This document shows, piece by piece, positions 8,666 through 50,811 of a DNA stretch of 64,000 bases. Position numbers and translations under genes: made by a program. The stretch covers positions 32,001 to 96,000 of the forward strand of contig JBNKBE010000002.1 in assembly GCA_050287085.1 (NCBI GenBank), written 5' to 3'. How positions within the stretch are numbered: the first letter of the stretch is position 1; every line of letters starts with the position of its first letter. This stretch comes from Polyangiaceae bacterium. GTDB lineage: Bacteria; Myxococcota_A; Polyangia; Polyangiales; Polyangiaceae. Under the pieces are notes generated by a model. It searched no databases. It was not told the origin of the DNA and worked only from the letters and a program-made list of their open reading frames with translations.

Positions 8666-9070
8666 ATGACACTAGCGCTCACGCTCAAGGAGGTCGCTCG
8701 CTCCGTGCCCAAGTGTCACGCTTGCGCGGTTGTTGATTGCCGAGCAGGACTTCTTGTTGCGAGCCGGAGGGTAGATCCTCAGGTGAGCGATTGTCTCGAG
8801 GGGGTGGCGGCTGCGAGCACGGGTCTATTCGAAGGCACAAGAGCCGTGGACATGGGCATGTTGTGTGGCGAGCTCATGAACCCCGCGAACGTCGTACAGC
8901 AGCAGACGACTGAGGTCGTTTTGGTTTCGGGAGAGTACTTGCATGTATTTCAGCGTTGTCCAGGGGCCGCGTCTTGGGTGTTGGTGCTGATCTGTGACTT
9001 GTCCGCGAACCTCGGAATGGTTCTGACGCGGTCTCGAACCTATCTCAACGCTTTAGCCGAGCTTCAATAG
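8666..9070 (+). CDS. Roadblock/LC7-like (MglB-fold) protein
   Basis: 134 aa; A.AVVD...GLL.A...EVVLVS..YLHVF...ANLGMVL pattern resembles the roadblock fold. Confidence 0.6.
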   Translation: MTLALTLKEVARSVPKCHACAVVDCRAGLLVASRRVDPQVSDCLEGVAAASTGLFEGTRAVDMGMLCGELMNPANVVQQQTTEVVLVSGEYLHVFQRCPGAASWVLVLICDLSANLGMVLTRSRTYLNALAELQ

Positions 9071-9082
9071 GCCAGGTGCGCT

Positions 9083-9985
9083 GTGGGAACTGAGCATCGC
9101 TTTTCGACCTTGCCGGCCGTTGATGCCGCGTCGTCCCCGGCGAGGAGCGTACCGCTCCGTCGTCTCACCGCCTTCTTCCGACGCGTTGAAGATCTCGGCC
9201 CCGACGCGACGGGCGCCTTGTTGTTCGCTTGCGAGGCGAGAGACGTGGGTGCGCTCTTGATCGAGCGAGGGCGGGTATGTTGGGCGGCGACCCCCGAGAT
9301 GAGAGCACGCTTCACCGCGCTAATCTGCGACCAGAGTGAGGGGCGCCTAGCTCCGGAGCAGGTGAGGGCGGTCTACAAGCGCTGCATCGAGAGCGGAGAG
9401 CCCCTGGGTCAGACCCTCGTCGCTGACGGCGTCGTCAGCGACGAGGGCTTGCGGCGTGTCTTGCGCCAACACAATGCAGAGGCCGTGGCCCTGCTCAGTC
9501 TACCCGGGCGGGTTGCAACCTGGCATCCGAGACCGGATCACAGCTATGACCCGCGTTTCTCGTTTACCCCGGCAGAACTCTACGTCAGCGTCGGGGCCTT
9601 GGCGAACGTGCCGGGTGCACGAGTGGCGCGCTCGCGACTGCGTGCGTTGGCGTCTCCACCGAACATTGGCGCAGGCTTCATCGTCACTGGCCATGAGCTC
9701 TTGCCGGTGGCTGAAGTCAACGGTAGCGCCATCAGCGTGGCTCAATTGCAGGTGCTCGAGGGTTGGTTGGGAGAGCTGGCCCAGACCACCACGCTGGGTA
9801 TGGGGGCGCCGAGGCTCTCGCTGTTGCGCACCGAGAGCGACCAGTGTGCGCTAGGGTGGTTCGAAGGGTGCTTGGCGTTTGCTGTCCTCAGTGCCCATTC
9901 GCAGCAGTCATATCGATTGATGAGTCGTTTGGTACATCCTCAGAGCGGCGAATTTCCGCTGGGTCTTACGGCAAATGGGGGATGA
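9083..9985 (+). CDS. Hypothetical signalling protein with DUF4388/PATAN-like and MshEN-like segments
   Basis: GALLIERGRVCWAA and PLGQTLVADGVVSDEGLRRVLRQH segments. GTG start 12 nt after the roadblock gene. Confidence 0.5.
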   Translation: MGTEHRFSTLPAVDAASSPARSVPLRRLTAFFRRVEDLGPDATGALLFACEARDVGALLIERGRVCWAATPEMRARFTALICDQSEGRLAPEQVRAVYKRCIESGEPLGQTLVADGVVSDEGLRRVLRQHNAEAVALLSLPGRVATWHPRPDHSYDPRFSFTPAELYVSVGALANVPGARVARSRLRALASPPNIGAGFIVTGHELLPVAEVNGSAISVAQLQVLEGWLGELAQTTTLGMGAPRLSLLRTESDQCALGWFEGCLAFAVLSAHSQQSYRLMSRLVHPQSGEFPLGLTANGG

Positions 9986-10245: not shown

Positions 10246-11661
10246 ATGCCTTCCAGTAATCGAGATCGTCATGAGGCCCGACAAGAAGCGGCACGTGTTT
10301 CGCCGGCACCGGCGATCGCTTGCCGCGGCGTTAGGGCGGGTTTTGGCGAGAAGACGATTCTGCATGGACTGACATTCGACATTGCCAGCCGGGGGATCGT
10401 CGCACTGCTGGGGCCCGCGGGCGTCGGAAAGAGCACATTGCTCCGCACGTTGGCCAGATACAACGAACTAATTCCCAGTTTCTGGACGGACGGTCGCATC
10501 GAGTTCGAGGGACGTGATCTGCTGACGGAGACCGACATCGAAGAGGCGCACGCGCGGGTCGCCTTGTTGGCGCAGAAGGCACGTCTATTCACCGCCACCG
10601 TGCTCGAGAACGCGATCTTCATGGCCACGCCGGCCCACCCCATATCCAAACTGCGCAAGCGGGAGCTCGCAGAAGAAATCCTACAACCATTGGGGTTATG
10701 GCGGCGCTTTGAGTCGCGCCTCGGAGAGCGGGTTACGGCGCTTTCCATCGCCGAACAGCGCATGCTTGGGTTAGCACGCCTAGTGGGGGGCGGTGCGCGT
10801 GTGATTCTTGCCGATGAGCCCTTGCGCGATATTGCCGAAGCGGAAACGTCGGAGCTGCTAGCGCTGTTCAAGCGGCTCGCCGAGACCTGCGCCGTTGTGG
10901 TTGTCACGCATCACCAGGGGCACGCCCGCGCCCTCGCCGATCGCATCCTCTTCGTCGTGGGAGGGCGCTTGGTTGAACAGGCCGGCACGGACGCGTTTTT
11001 TGAGCGGCCGGACACCGAGATGGGACGGGACTTCCTATCGTCCGGTAGCTGCTGGCCCAAGGACTTGGACGAGTTCAAAGCCTACGAGACGCCGACGGAT
11101 GAATCGGGGGCGAAGTCGATGGCGAGCGAGCCCGAGTCGTCGCCTACGGTATCGACCCCGGTGCGAAGCGTTCGTCAGTCGGGCCCTATGCCGGGCGGCT
11201 TCCACTGGATCCTACGAGGCGTGTTGGGGGGCATGCAGCGACCCGGGTTGCTGGTCGAGGAAGAGGACGACCTAAACGCTTTGCAGCGCCTTGGGGTGAC
11301 GATGCTCGTCACGTTGACGGAGGAGCCGTACCCCGCCGCAAAGCTTGCACCCTTTGGAGTCGACGCGGTCCACTTTCCGATCCGCGACATGGGGGTGCCC
11401 TCACTGGCTGATGCTCGTGACTTGTGTGCGCAGCTAGCTCCTCGCATCAAGCGAGGGGAGCCGACGATTCTGCACTGCAAGGCCGGCTTGGGGCGCACGG
11501 GGACGATGCTAGCTTGTTGTCTCGTATTTGGCGGGGTCGAGCCCTTGAGGGCGATCCACGAAGTGCGCCAAATAAATCCCCTCTATATCCAAAGCCAGGA
11601 GCAACTGGAGTTCATCTCTGCGTTTGGCCCCTACGTTCGCGAGTCATCGAGCCCTTCCTGA
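10246..11661 (+). CDS. PstB-like ABC ATPase fused to a dual-specificity (CX5R) phosphatase
   Basis: Walker A GPAGVGKST, Walker B ILADEP and H-loop VVTHH, followed by FPIRDMG and HCKAGLGRTG in the same frame. Confidence 0.88.
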   Translation: MPSSNRDRHEARQEAARVSPAPAIACRGVRAGFGEKTILHGLTFDIASRGIVALLGPAGVGKSTLLRTLARYNELIPSFWTDGRIEFEGRDLLTETDIEEAHARVALLAQKARLFTATVLENAIFMATPAHPISKLRKRELAEEILQPLGLWRRFESRLGERVTALSIAEQRMLGLARLVGGGARVILADEPLRDIAEAETSELLALFKRLAETCAVVVVTHHQGHARALADRILFVVGGRLVEQAGTDAFFERPDTEMGRDFLSSGSCWPKDLDEFKAYETPTDESGAKSMASEPESSPTVSTPVRSVRQSGPMPGGFHWILRGVLGGMQRPGLLVEEEDDLNALQRLGVTMLVTLTEEPYPAAKLAPFGVDAVHFPIRDMGVPSLADARDLCAQLAPRIKRGEPTILHCKAGLGRTGTMLACCLVFGGVEPLRAIHEVRQINPLYIQSQEQLEFISAFGPYVRESSSPS

Positions 11662-11665
11662 TGAC

Positions 11666-12991
11666 TTAGGGGAGCAGTCTCAAGTCGAATGCTAGCAGAC
11701 CCGGCTGTGCATGACCGACCACTGGCGAGACGAGTTGACTGACCGCGGCTTGGACGCAGGCGTCCGCGTTGGAGCAAGGCGCGCCTTCGACGCGGGTGTG
11801 TCGAGCTCCCGTGTCGTCGATCCGAAGCACCACCCGCATGGCTGCGTCCGGGTACTGTTCAAGGCAGGTCTGGAGCGGAGCGCGTAAGGCCTGAAGGCGA
11901 AGATTCCAGTGAGCCGGCGTGGCCATGCCGTTGAAGGTGGCGTTCACCAACGCGACCGAGGCCCGAGGGCTGTCCGCGTTGTCCGCCAAAGTAAGATCCA
12001 GCGGCGCGTCCGTGGGGTCCTTACCCGAGGAGGACGGCGCGGGCGCTGCCGTCGCTAGCGGTATTGCTCGCAATGGTAGGGGCAGTCTCGTCGGGGCAGT
12101 TGCGGTCGAGCCTAGGGTCGTAGCGGCCGGTTCAGCCGCCCGGGGCGAGTCGCTGCCATGCAGCTCGGCGACCGGTCGTGCTGAGGGCGTTTCAACGGGC
12201 TGATTGTGGGAGGCGCGCGATAGAACACTCTCGACGCGGCTCGCTTTTCTGGAGGCCGGCGCTGGGGATAGGTGAGCCGCCGGACGGGGTGATAGAGCCA
12301 TGGGACGGTCCTGGTTTTGCGGCCTGGTAAGCCACAGTCCGATGGCCGCAACACCACTGGCTACGACCATCGCGAGCGGAACGCGGCCGCGATCATGCCA
12401 GCGCTGCGTCGCCAAGCGATTCGACTTTGGAGCGAATCCTGCAGTCCTTGCCTGGTTTCGTGGCGGTGGAATGGGAGCGGGTGGGGTCGTGCGGACGGTT
12501 GGGGATAGGGTGATGACCGAAGCAGCCTGTGCTTTGGGCGAATCGCTTTCTTCCCCGAAGTCCGTGTGTCCTTCTGGCAAAGGGTTCATCCGAAGGCGGC
12601 GGGTAGTGTCCTTGCGGGTCTTCAGGGGGCCTGTGCCGACGGCTTCGGCCCCCAGGGCCGCGTCCAAGATGAGCTGCTCCCATGGGGTATGGATCGTTTG
12701 TTCCGAATGGAGCCCAGCCAGGGCTTCTGGCACGATGCCGGCGTTGATGACGGACAGTCGACGAAAGGCGTCTTCGCCGCGGCCTATCAGGTCTTCGGCA
12801 TCCCAGACGCACCCGCCTCGGATGGTGATGACGCCGACTGAGCCTACTGGTCCTAGCGCAACAAGACGCACGGAGCGTCGGGCCATGCAGGCAAGCTGTA
12901 CGTAGTCCGCCATGGAGAAGACGGCCTCGGCGGTGAGGGACTCAGACCTTCTCGGTGGATTCAGGTGTGGATGCAGGGTAGATCGGGACAC
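11666..12991 (-). CDS. DUF4388-like membrane-anchored protein with Pro/Ala-rich linker
   Basis: FSMADYVQLAC...GVITIRGGCVWDAE...GEDAFRRL, one TM and a C-terminal Cys-containing domain. Start uncertain (12913-13177). Confidence 0.6.
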   Translation of the reverse strand: MSRSTLHPHLNPPRRSESLTAEAVFSMADYVQLACMARRSVRLVALGPVGSVGVITIRGGCVWDAEDLIGRGEDAFRRLSVINAGIVPEALAGLHSEQTIHTPWEQLILDAALGAEAVGTGPLKTRKDTTRRLRMNPLPEGHTDFGEESDSPKAQAASVITLSPTVRTTPPAPIPPPRNQARTAGFAPKSNRLATQRWHDRGRVPLAMVVASGVAAIGLWLTRPQNQDRPMALSPRPAAHLSPAPASRKASRVESVLSRASHNQPVETPSARPVAELHGSDSPRAAEPAATTLGSTATAPTRLPLPLRAIPLATAAPAPSSSGKDPTDAPLDLTLADNADSPRASVALVNATFNGMATPAHWNLRLQALRAPLQTCLEQYPDAAMRVVLRIDDTGARHTRVEGAPCSNADACVQAAVSQLVSPVVGHAQPGLLAFDLRLLP

Positions 12992-13234
12992 GGGGTAACG
13001 CCTACTGCTGGGGATATGGACGCAACGGCCCAACCAGCTCTCCGCTGAAGTCCTGGAGGGCGGTTCATTGATTGGTAGTCGGTCCGGACCTGCCCCTAGG
13101 GGTTGAACTGAACCCCAAGGCCCCGGCCGAAACCGAAAGGCAGGGAGCCAGCAATCGCTTCCCGCTTCTCCGAGCAAGACTAGGGGCGTCTGTGTGCTTT
13201 ACGGCACCCCGCAGATCAGCTAGTTCTGATTGAC

Positions 13235-48019: not shown

Positions 48020-49063
48020 CTAGAACGCCCCTCGGTAGTTGAGTCCCATGAACCTTGGATTGGCTTCTAGCGTTAGAGCGTCAGCGGTGGATTCTTCGTC
48101 GTCTGTCAGAACGTACAACAGCGCGCTGGTGGCGAGGCATACGCCGCCTGTCGCAAAGCCGATGACGGATAGTAGCTGCATGCTTTGCGCTCGATTTGAC
48201 AACGTTTCGCCTTGGCGATCGAAACAGCGGTTGTTCACGCAATACTCTTTTGCTTGGTCGTCCAGGTTGTGGGCGCGCAGCGACAAGAGGACGCCAGCGC
48301 TGACGCTGAGCAGTCCCACTCCGCCCAGAATCCAACTCGGGGCATGATTGACCCCGTGCCGGATGGGAGGCGGCGGGGCGGGGCTTGTTGTTTCCGGCGG
48401 ACTGGAAGTGACAGGTGCCGAGGCAGGCTCGGGAACGACGTTGGCTACTAGTGGGGGAACTATCACCTCGGTTTCCTGTGGCGTGTTCTCGATGACAATC
48501 GACTGCTCCCAACGTTGATACCCAGGCGCTTCCGCAACCAGGGTATGAGGGCCGGGATCGACGGGCGTCGGAACCCCCAGCAGCGCTCGAGGCACGGGCA
48601 CGCCGTCGCTTGTCAGCGTTAGGTCGGCAACGGCTTCGTCAGCGACCCGTATAGTGAGGCGAGCGAGCAGCGGTTCAAGCCGCTTGGCGCGCGCTTCACC
48701 GATCTCAGCGCGCTCGCTTTGACGCAGCTCGCGAGCCAGTGAGGAGGCTTCTCGAAAGGTCACCCAGGCGCTGGCGCTTCGTCCCGTCCGTTCGTAACAC
48801 TCGGCCAGGTACAGCAAAGTGCCGACGGCTGGGTCGACGCGTTGACTCTGCTCGAAACTGCGACAGGCGCCCTTCAAGTCGTTGGCCTCGAGCTGCTTGA
48901 GTCCCTTGTCGAATAGCGTTTCTGCGGCGGCCTTTTCGGCCGTCGTACGCTGCGCGTGCGCCGCGGCCGAAAGGGTTAGCCCCAGCGCCACCAAGAGTCC
49001 GGCGGCGCTACGACGTCTGGCCTTGGAGCTCGCACCACGGCCAATGGCCAAACCGATCACCAT
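48020..49063 (-). CDS. TPR + PEGA-like protein with C-terminal hydrophobic segments
   Basis: AETLFDKG...TLLYLAECYERTGRSASAW (TPR) and PVDPGPHTLVAEAPGY (PEGA-like). Start uncertain. Confidence 0.8.
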   Translation of the reverse strand: MVIGLAIGRGASSKARRRSAAGLLVALGLTLSAAAHAQRTTAEKAAAETLFDKGLKQLEANDLKGACRSFEQSQRVDPAVGTLLYLAECYERTGRSASAWVTFREASSLARELRQSERAEIGEARAKRLEPLLARLTIRVADEAVADLTLTSDGVPVPRALLGVPTPVDPGPHTLVAEAPGYQRWEQSIVIENTPQETEVIVPPLVANVVPEPASAPVTSSPPETTSPAPPPPIRHGVNHAPSWILGGVGLLSVSAGVLLSLRAHNLDDQAKEYCVNNRCFDRQGETLSNRAQSMQLLSVIGFATGGVCLATSALLYVLTDDEESTADALTLEANPRFMGLNYRGAF

Positions 49064-49194
49064 GGGCGCAAGGCTAGCCAAAACCCCTGCAAACGTCACG
49101 CGTCGCCCCAGTGGAAAGCGAGGCGGCGACACTCCGAACAACGATCCGGCCGAGTTCGGGTCGTGCTGCTCCCAGAAATCGTCCTCAGTGGTCC

Positions 49195-50811
49195 TCAGCG
49201 ACGGCCACCAAAATGCGTGAAACCGGCTGACGCCTTGGTCGAGGCGGGCGCCGTAGCGGGCGTTGCCGGCGACGCGGGGGATGGAGCCACGGTGGACGCG
49301 GGTGACGTGGTCTTCCAACGTGGGGGCGCCTTCGCGACGGGCCGTGCCGGCGGCGGCTCAGGTGGGCGGGGCGCTATTGGCGCTGCGCGGGGGGGAGGCT
49401 CAGCAGTGCTGGCCACCGACTCCGTGTCCTCGGCGGCAACCCCTTCAGTGGCGGGGGGGGCTGAGTCGACGACCGGGAGCACCGAGGGTTCAGCGGACGG
49501 CGCGGTTGCCTTCGAGGGCGCATCAGACGGGGCGCTGGCGGGAGACGGGGCGCTGGCGGGCACCTCGAACGCCGGAGCCACCTCTGGCTCTTCCCCGTTG
49601 GCCTTCGCCCCGGAGGCGATCCCGCTTGCTGCGAGCTGTTGTTTGGGGGTGGGGTTCACGAAGAAGAGTCCTGCCGCGGCCACGGCGACGACTCCGACGG
49701 CGCCAAGTATCAGCGGCGCCTTGCGTCGCTGGCTCGTCGGGGTGGTGTTCCCCCACGAGGCCATCGTGCCTTGGCCGCCCCCTTGTGCGCCCGACCGCTG
49801 ACCTGACATCGCCTCCACCGAGATCGGCAGGGAGAGGTCCGTTTCTGCTCCTGCCCCGGAAGGCAGCTCTGAACGTCCCGCGGTCAACGTGGAACTCGAC
49901 GGTTGCCCCAGAATACGCTCCACCCGCTCCGCGCTGGCGGGGCCGCCAGCGGTGAGCGGTCCGAGGGCCAGCGCGAGCTTTGCGACGGTGCGAAAGCGCG
50001 TCTCGCGCGGCGCCAGACAACGGTCCACGATGGCGTCCGGCTCGGGTCCAAGTTCCGGGCAGAAATCCGCGATCCGCTGTCTTTCACCCGTGAGCACCGC
50101 GCGTACTAGTTGCGGCAGCGACTCGCCCTGGAATGGCACCTGACCCGTTACCAGCTCGAAGAAGATGACGCCAAGTGACCAGATATCCGCTTGCTGATCG
50201 GCGTGTTTTGCCGACTCCAGCTGCTCGGGGGACATGTACAGCGGAGAGCCGACCATCGCGCGCGTCCGAGTCAAGGAAAGCTGGTCGCCGTTGGAGTCCC
50301 CGAGCAGGCTCTTCGAGATTCCAAAATCGAGCACCTTCAGGCAGTCCGAGCCGTCAGGGCGGCGGGTCAGAAAGAGGTTTGCGGGCTTGAGATCCCGATG
50401 AACGATACCCATTGCGTGGGCTGAGGCGATGGCTTCGCAGGCGTGCAGCATCAGCCGGGTGGCCTCCGCGACCGGAAGGCGACCGCGTTGCTGCAGCACG
50501 CGCGAGAGATCAGCGCCGTCCAGGAACTCCATCACCATGAAAGGCACGCCGCCCTCCATCGTACCGACGTCCAGCACGCGCGCGACGTGTTCGCTCCGGA
50601 TCTTGACCGCGGCGCGGGCTTCCCTTCGGAAACGCTCTGACGCCTCGACGTTCTCCGCCAGGCTCGGGAGCAAGAACTTCATCGCCACCGGCTGGTCCAA
50701 TTCGACGTGGCGTGCCGCGACCACGACACCCATGCCCCCGTGCCCGAGGATACGCTCAACCCGATACTTGTCGGCCAATATCTGACCGGGTTCCACGGGA
50801 CATTCCAGCAT
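49195..50811 (-). CDS. Hanks-type Ser/Thr protein kinase with TM and Pro/Ala-rich tail
   Basis: LGHGGMGVV, VAMK, HRDLKPAN, DFG and YMSPEQ motifs. Confidence 0.96.
   Translation of the reverse strand: MLECPVEPGQILADKYRVERILGHGGMGVVVAARHVELDQPVAMKFLLPSLAENVEASERFRREARAAVKIRSEHVARVLDVGTMEGGVPFMVMEFLDGADLSRVLQQRGRLPVAEATRLMLHACEAIASAHAMGIVHRDLKPANLFLTRRPDGSDCLKVLDFGISKSLLGDSNGDQLSLTRTRAMVGSPLYMSPEQLESAKHADQQADIWSLGVIFFELVTGQVPFQGESLPQLVRAVLTGERQRIADFCPELGPEPDAIVDRCLAPRETRFRTVAKLALALGPLTAGGPASAERVERILGQPSSSTLTAGRSELPSGAGAETDLSLPISVEAMSGQRSGAQGGGQGTMASWGNTTPTSQRRKAPLILGAVGVVAVAAAGLFFVNPTPKQQLAASGIASGAKANGEEPEVAPAFEVPASAPSPASAPSDAPSKATAPSAEPSVLPVVDSAPPATEGVAAEDTESVASTAEPPPRAAPIAPRPPEPPPARPVAKAPPRWKTTSPASTVAPSPASPATPATAPASTKASAGFTHFGGRR

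Follow-up and report, generated by a model that had tools for sequence, protein, structure and literature searches.

A conserved fusion of an ABC-type ATPase and a CX5R phosphatase, apparently paired with a Roadblock-fold protein in a probable two-gene signaling unit

The window, i.e., the whole stretch of 64,000 nucleotides that we analyzed from one contig of a Polyangiaceae bacterium, contains a gene whose single reading frame joins an ABC-type ATPase domain to a phosphatase domain of the CX5R type. Two smaller genes precede it on the same strand, one of which codes for a protein with the Roadblock/MglB fold. The features of the locus are as follows (residue numbers are those of the fusion protein; family counts refer to the alignment described below):

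8666..9070, forward strand: RBX, a 134-aa protein of the Roadblock/MglB fold with no Pfam match, 1.2 kb upstream of the fusion gene
9083..9985, forward strand: a 300-aa protein with a weak, below-cut-off match to DUF4388 and homologs near the fusion in 10 other loci
10246..11661, forward strand: the ABC-type ATPase–CX5R phosphatase fusion gene, an uninterrupted ORF of 471 aa with no predicted membrane helices
10309..11058, forward strand: the ABC-type ATPase domain, approximately residues 22–271, ending at its C-terminus in the family motif G-x-C-W-P
10411..10434, forward strand: Walker A, GPAGVGKS (residues 56–63), its Lys kept in 229 of 230 family members
10741..10761, forward strand: the degenerate signature, LSIAEQR (residues 166–172); SGG occurs in 0 of 230 family members versus 31 of 33 PstB sequences
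10801..10836, forward strand: Walker B with D190 and E191 (each in 229 of 230) and, after it, an altered D-loop, LRDIA (residues 193–197)
10909..10911, forward strand: the H-loop His222, kept in 229 of 230
11059..11187, forward strand: a variable linker rich in Pro, Ser and Glu (residues 272–314), with pLDDT below 50 at residues 287–298
11188..11649, forward strand: the DUSP23/CCaDUSP-like phosphatase domain (residues 315–468), with D381, HCKAGLGRT (C411, R417), Q449 and Q453

Further motifs in the ORF include Q110 and FFERPDTEMGRDFLSSG (residues 251–267) and, in the phosphatase domain, FPIRDMG (377–383), HCKAGLGRTG (410–419) and IQSQEQ (448–453). Pfam recovers ABC_tran at residues 39–193 (E = 1e-21) and the DSP-PTPase families PF22784/PF22785 at 318–437 (E = 2e-18). 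An AlphaFold2 model of the fusion built with 120 sequences has a pLDDT of 91.2 and a pTM of 0.87, with the linker disordered at about residues 287–298. As a pTM of 0.87 over 471 residues exceeds what one 250-residue domain could give, the model suggests that the two domains are packed against each other; inter-domain coupling pairs in an alignment of 230 sequences were at noise level, with plausible pairs within each domain. Neither a sigma-70-like promoter nor a terminator above chance was found around the gene. Among the sequencing runs, no RNA run containing it was listed, and the single DNA run that contains it may be the source itself. A convergent ORF of 503 aa on the reverse strand (11666..13177), with a Pro-rich middle, one hydrophobic stretch and no Pfam match, is absent among the conserved neighbors of the fusion.

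A protein search with the fusion returned 630 matches at E ≤ 1e-20 from 7994 scored candidates. The 119 relatives listed cover 88–98% of the query at 39–53% identity, and every one has both Pfam domains. Because they carry both domains at near full length, an accident of assembly is ruled out, and the initial annotation was right to read the locus as one gene rather than two. Named sources of these relatives include Myxococcales, Gammaproteobacteria, Acidobacteriota, Ideonella and Sideroxyarcus, and the ESM Atlas holds several clusters with the same ATPase–phosphatase architecture under automatic names only. The architecture appears to hold from the side of the ATPase as well: with this domain alone as query against proteins of 139–443 aa, 18 of 19 matches were fusions, the sole stand-alone match being a protein of 276 aa on a contig of 1.3 kb. 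Three matches with apparent internal stops were considered as broken genes and rejected as such, each having a full ORF.

Having widened the family by a profile search of cluster representatives, we reduced 279 full-length members to 230 at <70% identity and aligned these with 33 PstB sequences. The pattern of conservation is markedly uneven. First, the residues by which an ATPase subunit binds and hydrolyzes its nucleotide within its own chain (K62, S/T63, Q110, D190, E191 and H222) are all six present in 227 of the 230 members, and 196 have Phe or Tyr at the A-loop position. Second, the motifs that act across an ABC dimer are degraded: besides the universal loss of the SGG core of the signature, the D-loop LD is found in 31 of 230 members versus 30 of 33 PstB sequences, and SALD in none of the 230. 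In the subfamily near the window protein, R194 and D195 occupy the place of the D-loop, conserved in 105 and 118 of 120 members, respectively. Both the intact Walker A, Walker B and H-loop and the degenerate signature and D-loop had been noted in the initial annotation, and the family at large bears them out.

Textbooks present ABC ATPases as obligate dimers, each subunit contributing its signature and D-loop to complete its partner's active site. Loss of the signature with retention of the same-chain residues therefore means that something else must complete or control the active site.

PstB, the ATPase of the PstSCAB phosphate importer, is the closest family. Among NCBIfam models, the fusion scores best with PstB (TIGR00972), reaching 149.7 bits where the cut-off requires 343.2; the top Foldseek matches of the model are E. 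coli PstB chains (9k3s, 9k3x; ~30% identity), with a TM-score of 0.93 when normalized to the target; and PstB gives the best BLAST score for 37 of 40 family domains. In a careful tree of 63 rows, built after dropping three long outgroup rows, the fusion family (100/100) and PstB (100/99) each form one group and join against the other ABC families at 98/88; in a quick tree that included those three rows, the placement of the fusion family was not fixed. Since the two are separate groups in the careful tree, the sequence phylogeny places the ATPase domain as a sister of PstB outside the PstB clade. Hence, the earlier description of it as PstB-derived is better put as sister to PstB. The fusion and PstB share the ABC fold, Walker A, the Q-loop, the D–E pair of Walker B and the H-loop, but the fusion has neither LSGGQ nor SALD, lacks pstSCA neighbors and bears a fused phosphatase.

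This kinship, along with a host protein containing two PhoU domains, is what recommends the proposal that the fusion senses phosphate status while docked on PstA/PstC or PhoU and controls a phosphatase of proteins or lipids. The genomic evidence runs against it. In the host genome, which is 96.8% complete, neither PstB nor PstC scores over cut-off. PstB over cut-off is present in only 10 of 20 carrier genomes, several of which are incomplete, and there is none in G013, a carrier genome in a single contig. No pst genes were found among 76 proteins scanned from fusion loci or among the window ORFs scanned. Moreover, the N-x-x-[YF]-G stretch that follows the Q-loop and lines the permease-coupling groove occurs in 3 of 230 fusion members versus 23 of 33 PstB sequences, and some members have lost the helical subdomain. 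We regard phosphate sensing by docking on the Pst system as highly improbable, and this part of the initial annotation is not supported. Across the whole host genome (L006, L007), there is also a PhoU-domain membrane protein besides the one with two PhoU domains, which we take to be akin to a sodium/phosphate cotransporter.

The fusion could in principle be an ordinary transporter ATPase with its permease elsewhere in the genome and the phosphatase as a passenger domain. The intact ABC fold and its structural closeness to E. coli PstB fit such a role, but the signature is lost in all 230 members and the gene neighborhoods are of the wrong kind. Among the window ORFs scanned (8, then 39 of 62 candidates, the others of the 62 having been scanned earlier, overlapping better ORFs, or being purL and hemB, which were read directly), none codes for an ABC permease or binding protein, as had been observed earlier. 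Four of them have at least three predicted membrane helices, namely a bile-acid/sodium symporter, MraY, FtsW and the following one:

48023..49318: a membrane-helix ORF without a Pfam match, 36 kb from the fusion gene

To place this in a wider context, we compared fusion loci with control ABC loci, defined as the 76 non-fusions among 80 loci listed by a scan of genome contigs (4 of the 80 were fusions). Only 6 of 40 fusion loci have a same-strand membrane protein of at least four helices no farther than 2.5 kb away, versus 52 of 56 control loci. Those identified next to fusions include no ABC permease; they comprise a bile-acid symporter, an ion channel, an amino-acid permease and a desaturase. 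A transporter function thus appears extremely remote. ABC nucleotide-binding domains without a membrane permease have precedents in PhnK, structures of which are among the Foldseek matches of the model, and in SufC and ABC-F. These work as signature-locked ABC dimers, whereas the fusion family has no signature, has a phosphatase fused to it and has a Roadblock gene adjoining it. A non-transport signaling role of some kind is, in our assessment, very probable.

The phosphatase half is complete, as the initial annotation had held. Of the 230 members, 229 retain the triad D381/C411/R417, with Cys and Arg there by construction because the 279-member set was picked by its CX5R motif. P-loops of PTEN-type lipid phosphatases have basic residues at both the +1 and +4 positions; in the fusion family, Lys or Arg is found at position 412 in 210 of 230 members and at position 415 in 3 of 230. 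Because of the latter figure, a lipid phosphatase of the PTEN type is unlikely from the sequences; a lipid phosphatase was one of the options suggested at the outset. The closest solved structure to the domain is that of CCaDUSP (25xa; E = 2.7e-24), an active pNPP phosphatase according to the accessible part of its description, which counts only one bacterial dual-specificity phosphatase as characterized before it (PMC13687992). CCaDUSP (PDB 25xa, PMC13687992), Tk-PTP, SsoPTP and human DUSP23 share with the window protein the small DUSP fold, the HCxxGxGRT P-loop and the general-acid Asp; they are stand-alone enzymes, whereas the window phosphatase is fused to an ATPase. The H-C-x-x-G-x-x-R-S/T P-loop and general-acid Asp of DUSP23-like phosphatases are both there (HCKAGLGRT and D381), while the second general acid, a Glu in the alpha4–alpha5 loop, is absent: Gln449 aligns with Glu135 of CCaDUSP, and the position is Gln in 226 of 230 members.

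The nature of the substrate admits a different reading, in which the CX5R domain takes a small molecule, a nucleotide or an RNA end as its substrate instead of proteins, or works together with a globin-reductase as a redox-sensitive thiol relay, the ATPase coupling it to the energy state. The best Pfam matches of the domain are PTP-SAK and Tc-R-P, names that we take to come from RNA-repair and toxin settings. C269 is conserved in 184 of 230 members, and 11 of 39 loci have a globin or globin-reductase gene close to the fusion. Likewise, a protein of the architecture Fer2-FAD-NAD-globin is found in 16 of 401 sampled genomes, 13 of them fusion carriers, but this was with a profile in which 4 of 7 rows come from carrier genomes in the same 401-genome sample. 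Against this reading, the closest solved relatives (CCaDUSP, Tk-PTP, DUSP23 and SsoPTP) are annotated as protein phosphatases, hardly any member lacks the general-acid Asp or the Gln residues for hydrolysis, and the neighboring genes are those of signaling rather than RNA repair. This non-protein reading is, on balance, rather improbable. Examples of the globin proteins, a Fer2–FAD–NAD reductase joined to a bacterial-like globin whose tail is rich in Cys, are found at L011:10310-11920, L108:9526-11130 and L113:3854-5401; the host has a copy at G000:C28:23820-25424, unlinked to the fusion.

The most consistent neighbor of the fusion is RBX. Counting the window, 37 of 39 fusion loci have it on the strand of the fusion gene, immediately downstream at 29 of them and 1.1–2.9 kb upstream at the other 8; the two loci without it have about 2 kb of flanking sequence or less. 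It is found near none of the 76 control ABC loci. The ESM Atlas links RBX to a Roadblock/LC7 cluster at 0.90, and its structural model (pLDDT 91.2) matches the Roadblock/LC7 and MglB structures 3kye, 1j3w and 3t12. RBX is apparently a new Roadblock subfamily paired with the ABC–phosphatase fusion. In the 401-genome sample from the phylum of the host, the fusion was first found in 17 genomes and RBX in 27, including all 17. Nine of 20 further places with RBX had a fusion gene nearby that fell below the first threshold, so that in the final count 24 of the 27 RBX genomes have the fusion and all 24 fusion genomes have RBX. As the genomes include many kin (11 of the first 17 matches are in one family), these counts are not independent events, and the linkage is a pattern, not a statistical test.

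Within the window, RBX is a divergent copy that is missing two conserved motifs and has 35% identity to a second, canonical host copy (G000:C30:23548-23949, i.e., L182:6049-6450), to which no fusion is linked. The canonical copy may be the working partner of the window fusion. A second RBX subtype (135 aa, ~35% identity to the first) is found in tandem with it at L106:6927-7331, L162:6670-7077 and L169:11722-12126, which suggests a Roadblock heterodimer. The loci with tandem subtypes also hold a long MglA-like GTPase. The family of the intervening 9083..9985 protein showed no similarity to RBX in a comparison with the RBX profile (probability 0.1).

Roadblock/LC7 proteins are predicted regulators of NTPases, and MglB activates MglA, as given in the accessible parts of PMC4316618 and PMC11112851. 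We found an MglA-type GTPase in 16 of 39 fusion loci: six are short proteobacterial versions accompanied by Roadblock/LC7 genes and ten are long. The six proteobacterial loci resemble the group 3 MglA operons of beta- and gammaproteobacteria, which, in the part of PMC4316618 (Wuichet and Søgaard-Andersen) available, comprise an uncharacterized protein, MglA, and one or two MglB proteins. There is no GTPase beside the window fusion gene, and none is seen in the DNA at hand in 23 of the 39 loci, 21 of which have RBX. RBX is thus commoner at the fusion than the GTPase (37 versus 16 of 39 loci), and this supports RBX as the partner of the fusion. Neither the upstream Roadblock-fold gene nor the MglA-type operons holding many of the relatives figured in the initial annotation. 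The host also has a canonical mglBA-like pair on C7 and, at G000:C45:3037-4903, a long MglA-like GTPase (~490 aa, extended at the C-terminus) with its own adjoining Roadblock-like gene. The latter GTPase gene and the host metallophosphoesterases on C2 and C22 were considered as parts of the system and set aside, being unlinked to the fusion locus.

Two sets of unusual relatives bear on how the ATPase domain might assemble. The first comprises seven short forms (L121, L122, L168–L171 and L187; ~335–360 aa in most), kept out of the 230-member count, in which Walker A and Walker B are separated by 59–78 residues versus a median of 123. In these forms, the signature and the greater part of the helical subdomain are missing, but Walker A, DEP and the H-loop remain, making them natural minimal versions. 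The second comprises the long relatives, 17 of 18 of which have tandem ABC domains before the phosphatase (P0152, P0153, P0155, P0174, P0181, P0186 and others), the second domain being without a Walker A or H-loop. These tandem forms point to contact between ABC domains rather than a strict monomer. Several long forms also have an uncharacterized N-terminal domain of 270 aa, similar to the C-terminal region of the TPR neighbors in L110 and L111; the N-terminal extensions of the long fusions show no match to the 9083..9985 protein.

Accordingly, one may picture the ATPase domain as an ATP-dependent clamp, in a non-canonical homodimer or paired with a dead ABC copy, that positions the phosphatase, with the Roadblock protein mainly serving an MglA-type GTPase or acting as a scaffold or substrate adaptor. 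The tandem forms with their dead second ABC domain favor this, as do the conserved R194–D195 in place of the D-loop and the GTPases in 16 loci with, among them, the six akin to the available description of group 3 operons (PMC4316618). Opposed to it are the many loci with RBX and no GTPase in view and the short relatives, in which most of the helical subdomain, and with it half of the canonical dimer interface, is gone. Such a clamp is an unlikely arrangement, though the chief competitor of the account that follows and one with a tangible share of the probability.

The account that we favor, and to which we would assign about an even chance, is that the fusion is a soluble ATP/ADP switch that gates its own phosphatase under the control of the neighboring Roadblock protein. 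Gating by a repurposed ATPase, shorn of its Pst connection, is thus the part of the original proposal that we retain as the best reading. In this mechanism, the ATPase domain would bind Mg-ATP but would not close into the customary signature-locked sandwich dimer. A Roadblock dimer would bind the ATPase domain and either speed up hydrolysis or fix one nucleotide state, as MglB does on MglA. The nucleotide state would then open or close the packed phosphatase domain, which would strip phosphate from Tyr, Ser or Thr of proteins within the same signaling module. In many lineages, the module might be plugged into an MglA-type GTPase operon, with oxygen or redox input via the globin-reductase. A relative with a fused Ser/Thr kinase (P0174) speaks for this switch. 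Against it stand the presence of the textbook Roadblock partner, an MglA-type GTPase, in 16 of 39 loci, the tandem ABC domains of the long relatives, the divergence of the window RBX with its two lost motifs, and the noise-level coupling between the domains.

As a system, the switch would be a Roadblock-regulated NTPase in kind, yet outside the MglA–MglB family, and neither a PstB nor a transporter part. The MglA–MglB switch of Myxococcus and Thermus likewise has a Roadblock/MglB-fold protein encoded with a P-loop NTPase; there, the NTPase is a Ras-like small GTPase, whereas here a Roadblock subfamily without a Pfam match is constantly paired with an ABC-type ATPase, and a fused phosphatase provides the output. 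A bolder version holds that an ABC ATPase has been turned into a G-protein-like switch by shedding the signature, the D-loop and, in some members, most of the helical subdomain; a dedicated Roadblock dimer would act as its activator where a second ABC subunit normally stands, and the switch would govern the tyrosine-type phosphatase fused to it, the whole being a two-gene unit across Myxococcota, Proteobacteria and Acidobacteriota that may relay the oxygen or redox state of a globin-reductase. We hold this to be possible, its chances falling somewhat short of even.

The two-gene signaling unit is real, conserved and apparently undescribed. To our knowledge, the likeliest place for an earlier mention of the fusion would be the treatment of the rhodanese-phosphatase superfamily by Burroughs and Aravind (2023). 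Our full-text search of the literature (listings and the starts of abstracts), whose coverage stopped short of Burroughs and Aravind 2020 and 2023, returned no description of the fusion or its Roadblock link. The word "phosphatase" is absent from the text of PMC4316618, three of its supplementary files gave no match to the fusion (file 1 being outside the search), and the accessible part of PMC11112851 has neither "ABC" nor "phosphatase". Given that an ABC site is ordinarily completed by a second subunit, the Roadblock protein is the obvious candidate to complete or control it here; if so, Roadblock regulation would extend from small GTPases to ABC ATPases. For the group 3 MglA operons, which are poorly understood, the fusion suggests a phosphatase as the output, and as both the fusion and RBX are small and soluble, the idea is open to direct testing.

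Finally, the fusion loci have other recurrent neighbors, namely metallophosphoesterases and TPR proteins. At two loci (L167:7219-8271 and L160:4560-5912), there is a second phosphatase gene near the fusion; the one in L167 is a decayed ABC–phosphatase fusion that has lost its Walker A.
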